Part shown: piece by piece, positions 3,532-27,882 of the stretch | Position numbering within the stretch: the first letter of the stretch is position 1 | How the letters are laid out: every line of letters starts with the position of its first letter | The notes under the pieces: generated by a model | Databases searched by the model: none | Seen by the model: the letters and a program-made list of their open reading frames with translations, nothing else | What the model was told of the DNA's origin: nothing | Made by a program: the position numbers and the translations under genes | Source: Bacteroidales bacterium | GTDB lineage: Bacteria > Bacteroidota > Bacteroidia > Bacteroidales > UBA3824 | DNA: 39,520 bases | Assembly: GCA_045640025.1 (NCBI GenBank) | Contig: JAZUEG010000270.1 | Span: 1-39,520, forward strand | Direction: 5' to 3'

Positions 3532-4851
3532 ATGAAATTTTTCGACAGGAAAGAAGAGATAGCCAAACTCAGGGAGATTCAGCAAATGTCGCTGAGCAAC
3601 GCCCAGTTTACAATAATAACAGGCCGACGCCGCATCGGCAAGACAAGCATGGTGCTGAAGGCGTTTGAGGATCAGCCACTTGTATATTTTTTTGTAAGCA
3701 GGAAGGCTGAGGCCGCACTGTGCGCGGATTTTCAGCAGGAACTAGAAAACAAGCTCAACATCGTAACCATGGGCAAGGCCACAAATTTTGCCACCATATT
3801 CGAGCAGCTGATGATAATATCAGAGAAACAGAACCTGACTTTGTTCATAGATGAGTTTCAGGAGTTTATCAACGTAAACAAATCCATCTACAGCGACATG
3901 CAGAGAATCTGGGACCTCCACAAAAACAACAGCAGGCTAAACTTAATAGTATGCGGCTCGGTATATTCGCTGATGGGCAAGATTTTCAAGAACGAGAAAG
4001 AGCCTCTGTTTGGAAGAGAGACCGCGCAGATAAACCTGAAGCCATTCAGGCCATCCACATTAAAGGAGATAATGCAGGAATACAATCCCGGATACAGCAA
4101 CGAGGACTTGCTGGCTCTATACACATTTACCGGCGGAGTGGCCAAATACGTAGAGATACTTGTGAACAGCAACACCCTTACGCTGAACAAAATCCTAAAC
4201 AAAATCTGCGAGAAGGATTCCATTTTCATCAGCGACGGCAAATCCACCCTGATAGAAGAATTCGGGCGAGACTATGGAATATATTTCTCGATATTATCAG
4301 CCATTGCCAACGGACACAACTCAAGAAGCAAAATTGAGGAAATCATCGGGAAGGAAGTAAGCGGATATCTTACAAAATTAGATTCGGAATACGGCCTCAT
4401 CAGCAAGCATCAGCCAATGTTTGAGAAAAGCGCAGGCACAAACCTCCGCTACAAGCTCGATGACAACTTCTTCATCTTCTGGTTCAGGTTCGTATACAAA
4501 TACAATTACATGCTCGAGATTGGCGCATACGAGAAACTGCTTCAGATAATACAGCGCGACTACAATGTATTCAGCGGATTGGCTCTGGAGAAATATTTCA
4601 AGGAGGTGATGATGGAATCCAAGAAATACACAAGAATCGGCAACTGGTGGAACCGCAGGGGCGATGTGGAGATAGACATAATATCCGCCGACGAGCTGGA
4701 AAACACAGCGGAATTCTATGAGGTGAAGCGCAAGAAGGAAAACTTCTCGCCAAAACTTCTTGAAGAAAGGAAAGACGCTTTCCTAAACGCCACACATCAA
4801 TTCAAGAACTATAAAATAAAATGTAAGGGATTGTCGATAGAGGATATGTAA
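3532..4851 (+). CDS. ATP-binding protein (ATPase_2 archaeal-type ATPase, probable wHTH, DUF234 PD-(D/E)xK-like C-terminus)
   Basis: MKFFDRKEE start, Walker A GRRRIGKT, Walker B FIDEFQ, CGS, TGGVAKY, DNFFIFWFRF, C-terminal EIDII...EVK. Confidence 0.9.
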   Translation: MKFFDRKEEIAKLREIQQMSLSNAQFTIITGRRRIGKTSMVLKAFEDQPLVYFFVSRKAEAALCADFQQELENKLNIVTMGKATNFATIFEQLMIISEKQNLTLFIDEFQEFINVNKSIYSDMQRIWDLHKNNSRLNLIVCGSVYSLMGKIFKNEKEPLFGRETAQINLKPFRPSTLKEIMQEYNPGYSNEDLLALYTFTGGVAKYVEILVNSNTLTLNKILNKICEKDSIFISDGKSTLIEEFGRDYGIYFSILSAIANGHNSRSKIEEIIGKEVSGYLTKLDSEYGLISKHQPMFEKSAGTNLRYKLDDNFFIFWFRFVYKYNYMLEIGAYEKLLQIIQRDYNVFSGLALEKYFKEVMMESKKYTRIGNWWNRRGDVEIDIISADELENTAEFYEVKRKKENFSPKLLEERKDAFLNATHQFKNYKIKCKGLSIEDM

Positions 4852-21375: not shown

Positions 21376-21386
21376 ATTGGGGAAGG

Positions 21387-21427
21387 ATTTTAAGTGGAAA
21401 ATTTTTGCAAAGTTTTCCACTTAAAAT
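21387..21427. promoter_or_regulatory. Perfect 15-bp inverted repeat with 11-bp spacer upstream of the AbiE promoter (candidate operator)
   Basis: ATTTTAAGTGGAAAA-tttttgcaaag-TTTTCCACTTAAAAT; -7 element TAGTTTTG at 21464-21471. Confidence 0.65.
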
Positions 21428-21497
21428 TCGTTAAAATATTACCAAGATACGGAAAAGAATTAGTAGTTTTGCATTGGAAAACTCAAAGCAACCTCCA

Positions 21498-22085
21498 ATG
21501 AACAAAATTATAGAACATATAGAACATCAGGCAAAAGGCAAAATATTATTTGTCTCGGACTTCTTGGATATCATAGACAACGAGAAGGCCATAAGCAGGA
21601 TTCTATCCACAGAAGAAAAGCGAGGCAATCTCACAAGGCTTGCCAACGGAATATATGTGCGCCACGAGAATACAAGATTCGGCAAGGTAATCCCTCCCAT
21701 TGAAAAAATAGTAGAAGCGATAGCCATACGCGACAATGTGAAGATATTGCCCTGTGGAGCCACAGCACTCAACATTTTGGGATTATCAACGCAAGTGCCT
21801 ACCAAATACTGTTTCATAACATCGGGAAGCGGACGATCAATCACTATAAACGGCGACAAGGTGGAGTTTTTGAGAAGCGTTCCTAAGAATTTCGCCTATA
21901 AGACCAAGATAGTCGCGCTGTTGGTTCAGGCTCTCAAAACCATTGGAGAAGAAAGCATCAGCCCCGACGATATCAACATCATAAACTCATTGATAAAGCA
22001 AGAACCCTGTAAGGAGGATATGAGGCAAGACATTCTCCATACACCAATATGGATGAGAAAAATCCTAACACCTTTGGCAATATGA
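21498..22085 (+). CDS. DUF6088/AbiEi-like antitoxin (type IV TA system)
   Basis: LTRLANGIY, ALNILGLSTQVP, TSG..R.I, LVQALK; ATGA overlap with the downstream toxin gene. Confidence 0.85.
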   Translation: MNKIIEHIEHQAKGKILFVSDFLDIIDNEKAISRILSTEEKRGNLTRLANGIYVRHENTRFGKVIPPIEKIVEAIAIRDNVKILPCGATALNILGLSTQVPTKYCFITSGSGRSITINGDKVEFLRSVPKNFAYKTKIVALLVQALKTIGEESISPDDINIINSLIKQEPCKEDMRQDILHTPIWMRKILTPLAI

Positions 22086-23101
22086 GAAAGTGGACCGACA
22101 ACAGCAAACTGGAGCGAATGGCAATGCTCCAACAAACAAGGGAAAAGTTTGGAATAAACATAAACGCAATCGAGAAAGACTGGTGGGTATCAGTAATCCT
22201 AAAAGCGCTTTTCTCTTGCGAATGTAGAGAGCATTTAAGTTTCAAGGGAGGTACTAGCCTGAGCAAAGGCTAGAATCTGATAGAGCGTTTCAGTGAGGAC
22301 ATTGACCTATCCATAAGCCACGAGTATTTCGGAGTTTCACAAACATCAAAAAATCAGAAAGAAAAACTCCGCAAAACCGCAAGGAAATATATCTTGGAAA
22401 CATTGGTCAAGGAACTTTACCTGAAACTGAGAGAAATGGGTATAGACGGATACTCCATTAAGCCAATCACAACTGTACAGAAAGCGTCAGGCGAAATCAC
22501 AAAAATAGACAGCGACAAGGATCCGTCAGTAATAATGGTGGAATACAACAGCATTGTTTCTGACAGCATTATGTACATCCCTACAACCGTAAAGATCGAG
22601 ATCAGTTGTCTGTCAATGAACGAGCCCACAGAGAACAGGCTATTATCGTCCCTTATGGAACAAAAATTTCCAGGAGAGGACGACTTGACAAAGACATCTA
22701 TCAGGACAGTTGTTCCCACCAGGACATTCCTTGAAAAAGCATTTCTACTTTGCGAGGAGTTTCAGAAAAACAATCCAAGACACGTAAGAATGTCAAGACA
22801 CTTGTATGACTTGGAAAAAATTATGGATACAGAATTTGGCACAAAGGCATTGCAGGACCCAGCATTATACAATGAGATAATAAAACACAGAGAGACCTAT
22901 TACTCATTGAATTATGTTGACTACTGCAAACTGAAACCAGAATCAATATCCTTCGTACCACCGCAAAATGTAATATCAAATTGGGAAACCGACTACCAAG
23001 AAATGCAACGCCATTTCATATATGGCCGAAGTCTTGGATTCAAGGAACTGATAAATCGAATAGAAGAATTGCAGGAAAGGTTTAGGGAAATTCCAAAATA
23101 A
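22082..23101 (+). pseudogene. AbiEii/AbiGii nucleotidyltransferase toxin interrupted by an in-frame TAG (22271-22273)
   Basis: One continuous frame: IEKDWWV...FKGGTSLSKG*NLIERFSEDID...RTFLEKAFLL.EEF...RMSRHLYD. The two ORFs 22049-22273 and 22394-23101 are in the same frame. Confidence 0.88.
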
Positions 23102-23122
23102 AATCGATAGATTCGCAATTCC

Positions 23123-23197
23123 GTCCCCGGAGGGGACAAGCAAAGCCTCCGTTAACCCATAGTGCGACGACGCCTTGGCGTCGGGAGTACTATGGGG
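23123..23197. repeat. GC-rich multi-hairpin REP-like element
   Basis: GTCCCC-gga-GGGGAC (23123-23137), then CCCATAGTGC...GTACTATGGG (23156-23196) enclosing CGACGCC-tt-GGCGTCG. Confidence 0.7.
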
Positions 23198-23202
23198 ATT
23201 CA

Positions 23203-23670
23203 CGAAACAGGCGGAAATCTATCTAAAAAACATACATTTCCGCCCATTTCAAGCAAAAACCAAGTCGAAACGGGCGGAAATGTGGTAAAATTTGACACAT
23301 TTCCGCCCATTTCGTGAAAATGAATAAAGTTTCCAATAAAAGATTGCGCCAAAATATAACGCTATAAGTTGGCGCAATCTCATAAAAAAGTCGAGATTGC
23401 GCCAAGTAATAATCCACTATTTCCCCACGAAACGCAAAAATCCTGTTTCGTGGGGAAATAAGGACTCCTTAAAAACCCCACGAAAAGGAAAAAACACGAG
23501 ATTGCGACAGAAAATGACATCAAAATCTGTCGTAATGTGATATAAAAAGTCGAGATTGCGCCAAATAATAATCCACAAAAGCCCCACAAAACTCAAAAAT
23601 TAAGTTTCGTGGGGAAATAAGGATATACTATTTCCCCACGAAATAAGAAAAATATGTTTCGTGGGGAATT
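23203..23670. repeat. Array of about 17 mostly alternating inverted half-sites from three sequence families
   Basis: Family A CGAAAYRGGCGGAAAT (23203, 23236 rev, 23266, 23299 rev); family B GAGATTGCGCCAA (23341, 23369 rev, 23393, 23498 variant, 23527 rev variant, 23552); family C TATTTCCCCACGAAA (23418, 23446 rev, 23476 partial, 23582 partial, 23605 rev, 23629, 23657 rev). Confidence 0.9.
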
Positions 23671-23746
23671 AATAATGCAAATAATTTGGAATTGTGAATC
23701 AAAAGTATTTTATTTGCAGTGATTTAAAAATAAAAGAACTCCAGTT

Positions 23747-25186
23747 ATGGCAAAAATCATTGGCAGAAAAAAAGAAATAGAAGAACTCCAAAGAATAAGC
23801 AACAGAGAAGAGGCTCAGTTTGTAGCAGTTTTTGGACGCAGACGAATTGGAAAGACTTTTTTGATAAGAGAGGTCTTCAAGGATAAATTTGCCTTCTATC
23901 ATACTGGAATATCCCCATTGGAACTGGAAGGTAAAAATCTGATAGAAAAGCAATTGTCAGCATTCAATTCAACACTTGCAAGATATGGACAAGAAGCCTT
24001 GGAATCTCCCAAAGACTGGTTTGAGGCTTTTGATCGCCTTATAGATCTACTCTCAGCAAAGAAAACAGAGGAAAAACTAATTGTCTTCATCGACGAAATG
24101 CCTTGGCTCGATACGCCGAGAAGTTGTTTCATATCAGCATTCGAACATTTCTGGAACGGCTGGGGAGCAAGTCAGGACAACTTAATGCTTATCGTATGCG
24201 GAAGCGCCTCATCGTGGATACAGAACAATCTTATAAACTCTCACGGAGGACTCTACAACAGAGTTACTTGCGAGATACAACTTCAGCCATTCACATTGTA
24301 TGAGGCGGAACAACTCTTGAAAAACAATGGAATCAACTACAGCCAATACAGCATTGCCGAGGCATATATGGCTGTGGGTGGAGTTCCATTCTACCTAAAC
24401 TACCTGAACCCGTCGATGAGTGTGGCTCAAAATATCGACTCGCTGTTTTTTGCCCCAAAAGCAAAACTCAAGGAAGAATTCAACCGCTTGTTCCAAAGTA
24501 TTTTCAGCAAGCCTGAGCAATACGAGAAAATCATAAGATTGCTTGCGGAAAACCACTCAGGATATACACGCCAATACATATCAGAGAAAATCGGTGTGGA
24601 AGGCAAAAGCCTCACGCAATATCTCAGAGCATTGGAAATGAGCGACTTTATACAAAAATACATACCATTCGGAAATTCCAAGAGAGAGGTTCTTTACAGA
24701 CTATCAGATCCATTCTGCATTTTTTACCTAAAATTTGTGGACGGACAAAACAATGGAACTAACTTTTGGCAGATAAACCAAAACAAATCACCCCTCAACA
24801 GTTGGCGAGGAATCGCTTTCGAGGAACTCTGTATGCTCCATATCCCACAGATAAAACAAGCATTGGGAGTTTCGGGTGTGGTCTCCAACAATACTCCGTG
24901 GACTCTCCGTGGCGACAAGGAAAACACAGGCGCTCAGATAGACCTTATCATTGACCGTCAGGACCGAATAGTAAGTATCTGCGAGATGAAATTTGTGATA
25001 TCAGAATTCTCTATCACAAAGGAATACGAGGCAAAACTAAGACGCAGACTTCAACTCGTAACCGACAGAATCAACAACAGAATACAAAACGCCCAACTTG
25101 TAATCATCACCACATTCGGCCTCGAAAACGGAATGTACAATTCCTTAATCTCTAATGTGGTTACATTGGAAGATTTGTTCAAATAA
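23747..25186 (+). CDS. ATP-binding protein (ATPase_2 family, probable wHTH, C-terminal PD-(D/E)xK-like domain)
   Basis: IIGRKKE, Walker A GRRRIGKT, FIDEMPW, CGSASSW, GGLYNR, GGVPFYL, C-terminal AQIDLIIDR...CEMKF. Confidence 0.9.
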   Translation: MAKIIGRKKEIEELQRISNREEAQFVAVFGRRRIGKTFLIREVFKDKFAFYHTGISPLELEGKNLIEKQLSAFNSTLARYGQEALESPKDWFEAFDRLIDLLSAKKTEEKLIVFIDEMPWLDTPRSCFISAFEHFWNGWGASQDNLMLIVCGSASSWIQNNLINSHGGLYNRVTCEIQLQPFTLYEAEQLLKNNGINYSQYSIAEAYMAVGGVPFYLNYLNPSMSVAQNIDSLFFAPKAKLKEEFNRLFQSIFSKPEQYEKIIRLLAENHSGYTRQYISEKIGVEGKSLTQYLRALEMSDFIQKYIPFGNSKREVLYRLSDPFCIFYLKFVDGQNNGTNFWQINQNKSPLNSWRGIAFEELCMLHIPQIKQALGVSGVVSNNTPWTLRGDKENTGAQIDLIIDRQDRIVSICEMKFVISEFSITKEYEAKLRRRLQLVTDRINNRIQNAQLVIITTFGLENGMYNSLISNVVTLEDLFK

Positions 25187-25246
25187 GAAAGCCACTAAAT
25201 CACTAACAATTAACAAATTAACCAAATTTATCCCCATTCAAAACTT

Positions 25247-25279
25247 CGCCAAATTGAGCAAAAATTCGTCAATTTGGCG
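25247..25279. repeat. 11-bp inverted repeat with 11-bp spacer
   Basis: CGCCAAATTGA-gcaaaaattcg-TCAATTTGGCG. Confidence 0.8.
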
Positions 25280-25515
25280 GACTTTTGCATCAAATTTTTC
25301 CTCCACAAACCCTTGCTTATCCCGAAAGAATAATGCAATTTTGCAGACGCTAATTAATCACGAATATTCAGTTTTCTACCAAGGGAAAGTTTATTGTAAA
25401 CAACTTAACAAACTTTAATATAATAATAAAAGAATTAGGGCAAAACGGAAAAATCAACTTCGGATTTTAACAAAAAAATCCCTATCTTTGCAATCCAAAA
25501 AATAAAAACCGCAAA

Positions 25516-26592
25516 ATGATAAACATAAACACACAAGACCTTATAAAAGTGCTGGATATGACTCCAGCGTCCCAGAATATAATGCTGGTGGGAAAGCACG
25601 GAATCGGAAAATCCGAGATTCTCACCGACTATTTTTCCAAGAAGGGAATGAAGGTAATCGCCCTTTTTCTCGGTCAGATGAGTGACCCTGGCGACCTAAT
25701 CGGTCTTCCAAACAAGGACGAGGAAACGGGCAAGACCACCTTTATGCCTCCCTATTGGTTCCCGATGGACGGCGAGCCTATCGTGCTGTTCCTCGATGAA
25801 TTGAACCGAGCAAGGCCTGAGGTTTTGCAGACCATCATGGACCTCGCGCTCAACAGGAAACTCGCTGGACGATCTCTCCCAGAGGGAAGCCGTATAATAT
25901 CCGCAGTTAACGACGGTCAGGAATACCAGCTCACCGACCTCGACCCTGCGTTGGTTTCCAGATTCAATATCTACGGATTCCGACCAACGAGCGAGGAATG
26001 GCTCTTGTGGGCCGCGCAGAATAAGGTTGACAACCGCGTGATAAACTTCATTCAGGAGAATCCAGAATACCTCGATGGCAGGGTTGAGAAAAATCCCGCA
26101 CAGATCGACAACGGACTTGAGAAGTCTCCCGACCGCCGCGGTTGGAAAAAAGTCTCAGACATTATGCAGAATATCGGAAATATTGAGGAGTTCCATAAGA
26201 AGCTGATATCAGGCGTAGTAGGCGTTCAGGCTTCAAGCAAATTCTGCAACTTCGTGAGCGAGAACAGCATTGTATCCGCCAAGGACGTTTTGCTGAAATT
26301 CAGCAAGGTGGCCCCTACATTGGAGCATTACCACGTTCACCAGTTCGCGCAGGTAAACGAGTCGATTTTCCGCCATTTGGAGACCGCCAAAATCTCGGAG
26401 AAAGACAAGCCCGTAATCGGCAAAAACCTGCCCGAATACATAGACCTGATGCTCGATACCAACAACAAGGAATCGGTTGCGCACTTTGCGACACTCTGGC
26501 AAAACGGCAACTATCCCAAGGCTATCACATTTGTAATGATGAATTGCCCAGCCATTTACGAGAAGATAATCGACTACATACAAAATATTTAG
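25516..26592 (+). CDS. MoxR-like/AAA_5 ATPase
   Basis: Walker A GKHGIGKS, DPGDLIGLP, LFLDELNRA, LDPALVSRF, SPDRRGW; promoter TATCTTTG at 25483-25490. Confidence 0.9.
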   Translation: MININTQDLIKVLDMTPASQNIMLVGKHGIGKSEILTDYFSKKGMKVIALFLGQMSDPGDLIGLPNKDEETGKTTFMPPYWFPMDGEPIVLFLDELNRARPEVLQTIMDLALNRKLAGRSLPEGSRIISAVNDGQEYQLTDLDPALVSRFNIYGFRPTSEEWLLWAAQNKVDNRVINFIQENPEYLDGRVEKNPAQIDNGLEKSPDRRGWKKVSDIMQNIGNIEEFHKKLISGVVGVQASSKFCNFVSENSIVSAKDVLLKFSKVAPTLEHYHVHQFAQVNESIFRHLETAKISEKDKPVIGKNLPEYIDLMLDTNNKESVAHFATLWQNGNYPKAITFVMMNCPAIYEKIIDYIQNI

Positions 26593-26595
26593 CAG

Positions 26596-27882
26596 ATGGC
26601 GAAGAAAAAGGTGGACGAGCAAATCCCGACAAGGGAGCGGATACAGAAGATTGTGGAAGGTTGGTTCCTGAGCGAGCCAGCCCTCTTCGAAATGTATTGC
26701 ACCCACCAGCTGAAGGAGAATCCCAAGATGGCCTGCCACGCGCGCACGGGAAAAGGCATGATAGAATACAATCCCACGCTTTTGGAAAACGCAAAAGACG
26801 ATCTCATAGAGCAAGTTCTCAGGATAGAGGTTATCAGGATAATGCTGAAGCATCCATACGAGCGTCAGCCAGAGAACGTGCCCAACATGGCCAAAACCCT
26901 TGGTAGCGAGTGCACTATCACCAACTATTATCCATCTACGGCCAATATGCTCGAAATGGCCACTCCCGAAAAGTTCGACCTCCCCGAAAACCAGTATTTC
27001 GAATGGTACGCACGGGAGATTTACAAGAAGCTCCAGACCGACAAATCCCAGCAGAAAACCGATGCCGAGGACGACAACAGTCAGGATAGTCAGGAACAGA
27101 ACGACCCTGACTCGCCCTCCAACAACTCCACCAACGAGCAAAGCCAGGGAAACCCGAAAGGCGGTAGCCAATACGACGAGCAGTCGGAGGACCAGAACCA
27201 GGACGACGCAAAATCACAGCAGTCGGGCCTCTGGGAAGAGGACGAGATGAAACAACAGGAGATTAACGAACAGATCTCAAAGATAAGGAATTGGGGCTCG
27301 GTACCTGGAGATATGGTTGAATACATAAAAGCCTCCACCAAGCCCAAGATCGACTACAGGAAAATCCTTCAGGGATTCCGCGCCAGCATAATATCAAGCC
27401 GACGTTCGCTCACACGAATGCGACCCAACCGACGCACGGGATTCCAGAACATGGGAAGCATCTACAAGTTCTCGACCTCGTTGCTTGTGGCGGTTGACGT
27501 TAGCGGATCGGTTACGAGCAAGACCTTGGCCGATTTCTACGGAGTAATCAACAACGCCTTCAAATACGGCATAGAACGCATCGACGTGATGCAGTTCGAC
27601 TGCGAGGCCCACGAGATAGTCCCATTCAGCAAGCGGAAAAACGAGATTGAGATCGTTGGCCGAGGAGGCACGAGCTTCCAATGCGTGATAGACGCCACGG
27701 CCAGCCACGTGCCCATCTACGACGGCCTTGTAATCCTCACCGACGGATACGCTCCCGTGCCTAAAATCCCCGACCACTTCCCCACCAAGATACTCTGGGT
27801 ATTGCAGGACGAGGATTCTTTCAAAAACAAGGGCGAGGGCCTTTCTGCCACGGGCCGAGTCTGCGTGATTAACTTAGGATAA
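26596..27882 (+). CDS. DUF2201 family protein (metallopeptidase-like N-domain + vWA domain)
   Basis: MIDAS DVSGS, GRGGTSF, LTDG; acidic/Gln-rich linker; lies 3 bp after the AAA gene. Confidence 0.88.
   Translation: MAKKKVDEQIPTRERIQKIVEGWFLSEPALFEMYCTHQLKENPKMACHARTGKGMIEYNPTLLENAKDDLIEQVLRIEVIRIMLKHPYERQPENVPNMAKTLGSECTITNYYPSTANMLEMATPEKFDLPENQYFEWYAREIYKKLQTDKSQQKTDAEDDNSQDSQEQNDPDSPSNNSTNEQSQGNPKGGSQYDEQSEDQNQDDAKSQQSGLWEEDEMKQQEINEQISKIRNWGSVPGDMVEYIKASTKPKIDYRKILQGFRASIISSRRSLTRMRPNRRTGFQNMGSIYKFSTSLLVAVDVSGSVTSKTLADFYGVINNAFKYGIERIDVMQFDCEAHEIVPFSKRKNEIEIVGRGGTSFQCVIDATASHVPIYDGLVILTDGYAPVPKIPDHFPTKILWVLQDEDSFKNKGEGLSATGRVCVINLG

Follow-up and report, generated by a model that had tools for sequence, protein, structure and literature searches.

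Promoter-phased inverted repeats form a mosaic array upstream of a candidate anti-phage ATPase-nuclease gene in Bacteroidales

In archaea, origin recognition boxes (ORB) are organised beside the Orc1/Cdc6 genes, MalT boxes are arranged at promoters, and winged-helix regulators and antitoxins such as BrxR/CapW and AbiEi bind inverted repeats in their own promoters. Here we analyse a dense array of inverted repeats in a Bacteroidales bacterium (lineage UBA3824; assembly of 590 contigs and 3.92 Mb, 77.6% complete). The array occupies positions 23203-23670 of contig JAZUEG010000270.1, the whole 39,520-nucleotide stretch of which is called the window below, and stands upstream of a gene (23747-25186) predicted to encode an ATPase-nuclease of the PADLOC family PDC-S27. 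Our reading, to which we assign a probability of roughly 55%, is that the array is the operator lattice of a PDC-S27 cassette, that it is bound by the cassette's own product, and that it became a mosaic through the gain, loss and exchange of single units. In the literature on PDC-S27, related ATPases and their inverted repeats we found no description of these arrays, though supplementary material may bear on this.

The array comprises 17 half-sites of alternating orientation in the order AAAA-BBB-CCC-BBB-CCCC. Direct reading and a repeat finder place them at the same positions, with the half-sites proper covering 23204-23314 in A, 23341-23411 in the first B block and 23418-23486 in the first C block, in line with the earlier note on this DNA, which was made from the letters alone and had counted about 17 half-sites in this order. 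An 18th half-site, a remnant of C type, lies beyond the 17 counted, and the longest open reading frame (ORF) within the stretch has 69 aa. The features are as follows, with the strand where one applies.

23196-23208, plus strand: at the left junction, a remnant half-site of C type that ends in CACGAAAC; alignments match it to the left arm of a solo C hairpin in a sister genome (G002:C156) and to the C hairpin that the window has at 23418-23462
23203-23316: family A, four alternating half-sites with core GGCGGAAAT, direct period 63 bp, off the lattice of families B and C
23340-23411: first block of family B, three alternating half-sites with core GATTGCGCCAA; an array of operator type, orphaned here, that belongs to another ATPase clade
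23417-23486: distal block of family C, three half-sites of TATTTCCCCACGAAAC type, with homology to the G002:C156 solo hairpin that extends to the loop
23499-23536: variant B pair with core GCGACAG, a separate word class that aligns with the TAGACAG arrays of locus L086, flanks and spacer in common
23552-23570, plus strand: single B half-site, within the second copy of a 159-bp duplication
23582-23674: promoter-proximal block of family C, four half-sites, of which the first is degenerate; this is the array cognate to the gene at 23747-25186
23685-23716, plus strand: promoter-like boxes of Bacteroidetes type, TTTG at 23685 and TTTATTTG at 23709, with one mismatch to TAnnTTTG, 38 nt before the ATG
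23747-25186, plus strand: gene for a protein of 479 aa with AAA+, winged-helix and PD-(D/E)xK-like parts, PADLOC PDC-S27 (PADLOC and Pfam matches, structural model)

Direct copies of the B and C words are spaced 52-54 bp or 105-106 bp apart according to the repeat finder. The eight dyads formed by B, C and variant B fall on one lattice with a period of 26.35 bp and residuals of at most 0.46 bp, a fit equalled by 0 of 5000 random sets; family A fits no place on it. The duplication joins 23385-23464 to 23544-23623 (80 nt, 88% identity, offset 159 bp), the diverged copy of about 80 bp that had been noticed on first inspection. The same inspection had set aside a clustered regularly interspaced short palindromic repeat (CRISPR) array, rightly, because the copies alternate in orientation; three to four words are interleaved here, whereas a CRISPR array has direct repeats in one orientation with unique spacers.

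The protein matches the PDC-S27 model PDLC04984 over nearly its full length (E = 6.6e-191, residues 1-478 on model positions 1-473 of 474), and Pfam ATPase_2 matches its N-terminal half only, residues 7-220. Prediction from the single sequence reached a predicted local distance difference test (pLDDT) score of 35, and we used instead an AlphaFold model built with an alignment of 45 relatives (pLDDT 91.6). This model shows an AAA+ domain, a C-terminal alpha/beta domain and, at residues 256-319, a winged-helix unit of three helices and two strands, for which there are weak matches below threshold to HTH_24 and MarR. The C-terminal domain has no Pfam match; its residues D399, E413 and K415, invariant in the 45-sequence alignment, fit the PD-(D/E)xK pattern. 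Fold neighbours of the model are the archaeal ATPase_2 proteins 2qen and 2fna, MalT, STAND NTPases (signal transduction ATPases with numerous domains) and Orc1/Cdc6 bound to origin DNA. In the sections of PMC12988326 that concern it, PDC-S27 is a fusion of an ATPase with a PD-(D/E)xK domain and occurs commonly, with 4562 bacterial and 3503 archaeal instances, and most PDCs are there unvalidated as defence genes (PMC12988326). We refer to the gene as a candidate anti-phage ATPase-nuclease. It has no DNA-level orthologue in 24 sister genomes, the best match being at 64% identity.

The array of the window exemplifies a rule that holds for the whole family. In the same genome there are 31 full-length paralogs of the ATPase gene, at 38-48% identity. 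At least one inverted repeat lies within 300 bp upstream of 29 of the 30 paralogs that have enough flank, compared with 408 of 2158 background ORFs (at least 200 aa), and at least two lie upstream of 21 of the 30 versus 108 of the 2158. Nearly every paralog carries its own alternating half-sites 50-270 bp before the start codon, with a different word at each locus. Across the genome, 25 of the 182 multi-dyad arrays are found within the 0.3% of sequence that lies upstream of these ATPase genes. Upstream arrays occur also at 80 loci of other Bacteroidales and at all five loci taken from other families or classes of the phylum (L099-L103), whose genes are 39-43% identical. The longest is that of L090 (G013:C68), which extends 67-412 bp upstream of its ATPase gene; its 12 dyads, made up of about 13 half-sites that share one word, fit a 26.5-bp lattice perfectly.

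Two other expanded families show a weaker enrichment of upstream repeats (16 of 30 and 6 of 16 members). They were defined by tblastn with the array-flanking ATPase ORFs on contigs C13 and C276 of the window's genome. On these contigs (C13:1-3400 and C276:14000-17500) the same private array stands before an ATPase_2-type gene and again before a neighbouring ATPase ORF of a different kind. The neighbouring ORFs, which we take to be AAA_14/DUF4143-like and PF09820-like, have about 30 and 16 copies in this genome by tblastn.

The spacing of the half-sites is shared between loci that share no word. Among the direct-repeat runs upstream of 119 loci, 170 of 308 are spaced 52-54 bp, and 68 loci have such a repeat. 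The sequence TAnnTTTG is given as the Bacteroidetes -7 consensus in the part of PMC7366714 that treats it (PMC7366714), and of 115 non-redundant loci, 95 have an exact match, whose median distance upstream of the ATG is 34 nt. Measured from this box, dyads pile up at +4, +31, +58, +85 and +112. When each cluster at 70% identity is represented by one locus (51 of 58 clusters being usable), 73 of the 142 dyads are no more than 2 bp away from this promoter lattice, against about 26.5 expected. The dyads fall into two alternating classes, those with wide unpaired centres at +4.5, +58 and +112 and those with narrow ones at +31.5 and +85. The arms of the +4.5 dyad bracket the -33 and -7 boxes, and the inner arm of the +58 dyad abuts the -33 region. 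In the window, the C dyads at 23598, 23624 and 23650 lie at +111, +85 and +59 from the -7-like box, on the family-wide lattice. A sigma-70 promoter scan gave one site versus 1.7 expected, with a model that does not apply to Bacteroidetes promoters. The sites thus hold a fixed position relative to core promoter elements, as operators do, and they do so at many unrelated loci, which speaks for the stacked operators that the earlier note had put forward.

Two further points of geometry were considered. The dyad spacing of 26.5 bp was at first taken as evidence of equally spaced half-sites and was dropped, as it follows automatically from a period of 53 bp. Equal frequencies of odd and even array sizes are ruled out; even numbers of half-sites dominate, and the unit is therefore a palindrome, be it a dimer site or a hairpin.

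The words themselves follow the protein clades. Half-sites of C(A/G)CGAAA type, as in family C, precede 19 of 29 members of the window's clade, which are 50-60% identical in aa (hand count from a FastTree listing, two members being taken from another part of the analysis). Other clades have different cores inside a similar TTATT...GAAA frame. By a Mantel test, half-site similarity tracks protein identity, with 0 of 500 permutations in the case of the AAA domain, though the correlation is not specific to the winged helix. The word is inherited with its gene and specific to it, as is the case for the site of a regulator.

Family B belongs to a different clade. In sister genomes, B arrays stand before paralogs 39-42% identical at five of five loci in three genomes, within about 60 bp of the start codon at four loci and about 330 bp from it at one. 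Nine B-type arrays from six genomes align over their full length, and 9 of 21 arm pairs have changed on both sides (covariation score 0.288 versus 0.112 in shuffles, reached by 0 of 500). The arms of the variant B pair in the window, 23501-23511 and 23526-23536, are altered on both sides and complementary at 10 of 11 positions. The suggestion drawn from this pair at the outset, that complementarity is selected or copied, is thus strengthened by the doubly changed pairs of the wider set. The variant B word class corresponds to a four-half-site array in another genome, at L086. B arrays lie near only 2 of 119 loci outside their own clade, and there is hence no general association of B with C.

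Family A is of another kind. Among 25 genomes of the genus its exact pattern occurs in the window only, and 19 loci match it with one mismatch; none of these is next to an ATPase paralog, one is palindromic, and they look like chance matches. A-like words with a period of 63-65 bp stand before distant paralogs on contig C545 of the same genome and at L103. When the three families are traced through the genome and its relatives, as had been advised, C goes with its own gene and B with another paralog clade, and A is left without a partner.

The repeats and the gene behave as one entity. In an all-against-all blastn of the 119 loci, many cross-genome pairs are 80-97% identical in DNA solely from the first half-site to 0-25 nt past the stop codon, for example from -174 to +18 (L001/L002), from -124 to +6 (L086/L088) and from -129 to +22 (L054/L055/L067). 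By these boundaries, array, promoter and gene move between genomes as one unit of about 1.6 kb. The 3' ends of the cassettes have no motif in common by eye. Compared with L047, L048 has an insertion of 110 bp about 15-125 nt past the stop codon of the ATPase gene. This insertion is flanked by CTTAA and has inverted ends, resembling a miniature inverted-repeat transposable element (MITE).

Several loci show the traces of such cassettes. The window's locus is present in two sister species (G002:C156 and G010:C35) without the ATPase gene and most of the array. The empty sites extend from a 74-nt repeat on the left to the TTCGCCAAATTGAG palindrome, a promoter and an AAA_5 gene on the right. That of G002 retains one C hairpin, with a loop homologous to window positions 23418-23462, and that of G010 a single C half-site. 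L086 contains a decayed cassette: behind its B-like array come about 130 bp readable as the 3' end of another paralog, and after these the next cassette. In L002, a B array directly follows a C-clade cassette. On contigs C482, C303, C13, C276 and C545 of the window's genome, the same array, spacers included, is found on both sides of the gene.

In the window, our best reading is that of a mosaic, made up of the cognate C set, the B and variant B words of other clades, and A. The A and B blocks lie inside a C array, because the half-site at 23196-23208 is a C remnant to the left of both. Exchange in whole lattice units is suggested by three observations together: the one lattice shared by the B, C and variant B words, the duplication of 159 bp (3 x 53), and variants that differ by a unit. 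Lattice continuity is not significant in mosaic loci outside the window, where random sets of four to five points reach R values of 0.88-0.95. The earlier note had spoken of sites left by serial gain and loss of accessory genes. The gain and loss are borne out by the empty sites that keep C, by B before other paralogs, by the decayed cassette of L086 and by a metagenome variant (X1) that lacks one unit. The accessory genes concerned are not diverse, all of them being clades of a single ATPase-nuclease family. Stacked operators and sites of gain and loss, offered as separate explanations, are compatible with each other.

We infer an operator lattice from the fixed promoter register, the clade words kept at high divergence and the inheritance of array and gene as a unit. 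Each gene of the family carries upstream its own half-site word of about 16 nt, as palindromes every 53 bp, in fixed register with a Bacteroidetes-type promoter, the arms either bracketing the -33 and -7 boxes or abutting the -33 box. The cassette's own product is the presumed binder, because no other protein is inherited along with the word; it would bind through its winged helix, probably cooperatively as an oligomer. Once bound, it would control its own promoter, most likely by repression, the product being a potentially harmful nuclease. In the window, C is the cognate set by the promoter, B and variant B are the words of other clades, and A is a fourth word with a 63-bp period. Duplication, deletion and exchange of whole lattice units, at places where cassettes come and go, would have produced the mosaic.

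A number of observations weigh against this account. In the window itself, the -7-like box has one mismatch and the proximal dyad lies at +59, not over the core promoter. In the family, every lattice point is without a dyad in 20 of the 51 clusters, and an exact TAnnTTTG box is missing from 20 of the 115 loci. Even half-site numbers, found in 125 of 143 arrays, suit hairpin units equally as dimer sites. A private operator predicts neither that the C13 array also precedes an ATPase of another kind, nor that a gene can have the same array before and behind it. The Spearman rho with half-site similarity is 0.116 for the winged helix versus 0.25 for the AAA domain, and the partial correlation of the winged helix is about 0. 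Since the winged helix predicts the word no better than the AAA domain does, the correlation shows co-inheritance rather than the DNA-reading part of the protein, and it may reflect co-inheritance alone. Finally, no B-clade gene was found in the window's 77.6%-complete assembly, and family A has no cognate gene in the 24 sister genomes.

The main rival is a role in recombination, which the earlier note had raised as a cruciform-forming platform, though as an explanation of the array we regard it as unlikely. The palindromes would be recombination or attachment sites for the insertion, excision or copying of cassettes, and the PD-(D/E)xK domain of the cassette itself might cut them in a homing-like manner. 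Arrays without a gene of their own and solo hairpins would then represent landing pads or else footprints; such a role may coexist with that of an operator. It draws support from the sharp boundaries, with cassette homology beginning exactly at the first half-site and ending 0-25 nt past the stop in many independent pairs, and from the C hairpin or half-site kept at the junctions of the empty sites G002 and G010. The arrays on both sides of genes, the gain and loss of units, seen in the 159-bp duplication and in the X1 variant with one A unit less, and the B array right behind the C-clade cassette of L002 point the same way. Yet ordinary deletion between repeats would give the same footprints, and the 3' ends lack a common motif. 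Neither the promoter register nor a 53-bp period maintained over unrelated words is needed for a recombination site, and since each word is essentially private to its locus there would be no internal targets in the genome.

A bolder proposal unites the two functions. Each PDC-S27 paralog would be a sequence-specific DNA-binding ATPase-nuclease with a private word, which would make dozens of orthogonal pairs of protein and site in one genome, and the lattice would serve at once as operator, as assembly site and as substrate of a homing-like, in-register copying or exchange of cassettes, so that mosaics record, and perhaps mediate, traffic and cross-talk between paralogs. We consider this improbable, somewhat more so than a recombination role by itself.

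The operator reading must also be set against structure alone, in which stacked hairpins would shield a toxic gene against read-through or would extrude cruciforms, the sequence being irrelevant. As single-stranded DNA the stretch folds at -97.7 kcal/mol compared with -38.6 +/- 4.6 in 100 shuffles (z = -12.8), arm pairs change together, even half-site numbers dominate, and the minus strand has three terminator-like sites versus 1.2 +/- 1.1 in shuffles. The plus strand, which is the direction of read-through from the upstream gene, has none, so that the array does not qualify as a stack of intrinsic terminators, in which a G+C-rich stem precedes a T run on the transcribed strand. Moreover, the words are kept within protein clades at 50-60% aa identity, the register to the -7 box is fixed to about 2 bp, and the arms bracket the promoter at many loci. 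We rate a purely structural role as quite unlikely.

A structured non-coding RNA gene or 5' leader, another suggestion of the first inspection, agrees with the strong predicted folding and is nevertheless very improbable: positions 22000-25000 have no Rfam match at E <= 1, ARAGORN finds no tRNA or tmRNA in 23000-23800, the promoter-like boxes lie downstream of the array, and the sequence is different at every paralog.

The array is not a misassembly, as far as contigs can show; an error of this kind, for which long reads had been proposed as the check, was looked for with Logan contigs. Parts of the array are spanned by contigs of three other gut-metagenome runs, one of which may be the source of the window: X2 (23167-23585), X4 (22926-23422 and 23472-23817) and X1 (23297-23679). 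A contig of X1 skips 23231-23296, that is, one A unit of 63-66 bp. A contig form of low depth in run X5 joins 22349 to 25464 without the AbiEii gene, the array and the ATPase gene, and is weak evidence. Least probable of all are a generic dispersed repeat, such as a repetitive extragenic palindrome (REP), a bacterial interspersed mosaic element (BIME) or a MITE, an iteron set for replication, and an error of assembly: alternating intergenic palindromes do recall BIMEs, but there are no numerous dispersed near-identical copies (exact genome-wide matches to the core words number 6 for B, 10 for C and 27 for A, of which 4, 6 and 3 are inside the array), the arrays are tied to one gene family, separate metagenome contigs cover parts of the array, and 31 such loci per genome do not suit replication origins, so that the known MITE or iteron set once raised as a possible refutation is not what we find.

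The surroundings of the locus contain further elements, listed here from left to right.

21474-23101, upstream of the array: a DUF6088/AbiEi-like gene and an AbiEii gene
23123-23196: structured dispersed repeat of 74 nt, outside the array, at the left edge of the variable site
25245-25281: separate palindrome with TTCGCCAAATTGAG arms, about 60 bp past the ATPase stop codon, at the right edge of the variable site

The 74-nt repeat has copies of 87-98% identity on contig C190 of its own genome and at many places in G002, G010 and G020. It folds into two hairpins (-38.1 kcal/mol), has no Rfam or tRNA match, and coincides with a depth spike and loose ends in metagenome contigs. In the window as at the two empty sites, this repeat forms one border of the variable site, and the TTCGCCAAATTGAG palindrome is kept in front of the AAA_5 gene where the orthologous loci of G002 and G010 lack the ATPase gene. 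In the window, positions 25516-27882 hold a gene pair for an AAA_5 (MoxR-like) ATPase and a DUF2201 VWA-like or putative metallopeptidase protein, which has no PADLOC match. A palindrome with 19-nt arms (21385-21429) lies directly upstream of the DUF6088/AbiEi-like and AbiEii genes, and a second, distant relative of the ATPase is encoded at 3535-4494 of the same contig (27% identity over 351 aa).

Other repeat classes exist in the genome. Dozens of hairpins with arms of tandem heptamers (ATTACGA, AGTGATTGA-type, GATTAGA, AGTAGTT) form a separate genome-wide class, exemplified by C251:11353-11414, C123:13480-13551, C68:2106-2177, C170:1799-1867 and C279:5760-5824. Arrays of the palindrome TATCAGCTGATA every ~31 bp form another (C583:1827-1967, C487:5607-5717, C496:110-220, C452:3812-3900 and C395:2520-2600).

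Why do these arrays matter? PDC-S27 is among the commonest candidate defence genes, and the promoter-phased, clade-specific array yields the first concrete prediction of what its proteins recognise and how they are kept in check. It also offers a first testable handle on the control and exchange of an uncharacterised gene family. If the proteins do read their words, a single Bacteroidales genome would contain about 30 orthogonal pairs of regulator and operator, which would bear on the evolution of specificity and could serve as genetic parts. The family-wide rule explains a class of dense hairpin arrays in the intergenic DNA of Bacteroidales, and the solo hairpin is a marker of sites where cassettes come and go. 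Operator arrays as such are already known; new is the 53-bp, promoter-phased, paralog-private form, mosaic at cassette hotspots and tied to an uncharacterised candidate defence gene.

Several described systems come close to the locus and differ from it. Orc1/Cdc6 is likewise an AAA+/winged-helix protein whose gene lies beside paralog-specific inverted repeats, and its structures 2qby and 2v1u are fold neighbours of our model. The family described here differs in having 31 loci in a single bacterial genome, sites in phase with a promoter instead of on either side of an unwinding element, and an additional PD-(D/E)xK-like domain; nothing points to replication. MalT (fold match 8bob) is a STAND-type ATPase that acts cooperatively on several boxes in promoter register, yet it activates other operons, its boxes are neither 53-bp palindromes nor private to a gene, and it has no nuclease domain. 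The attC cassettes of integrons are single-gene units with imperfect palindromes that keep their structure while the sequence varies, gained and lost at hotspots that include cassette-less sites. An attC site stands 3' of a promoterless ORF, with an integron integrase nearby, whereas the palindromes described here lie 5' of an ORF that has its own promoter box, in promoter-phased units of 53 bp, a placement that does not fit. The REP and BIME sequences of enterobacteria share the intergenic palindromic units of alternating orientation, but consist of one or a few words dispersed hundreds of times, in contrast to a private word per locus and a single gene family. BrxR/CapW and AbiEi provide palindromic operators upstream of defence or toxin genes, together with autoregulation, and an AbiEi-like gene is itself present in the window. 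In those systems, a separate small regulator acts on one or two operators, whereas in the PDC-S27 cassettes the ATPase-nuclease is the presumed binder and the arrays are long and periodic.

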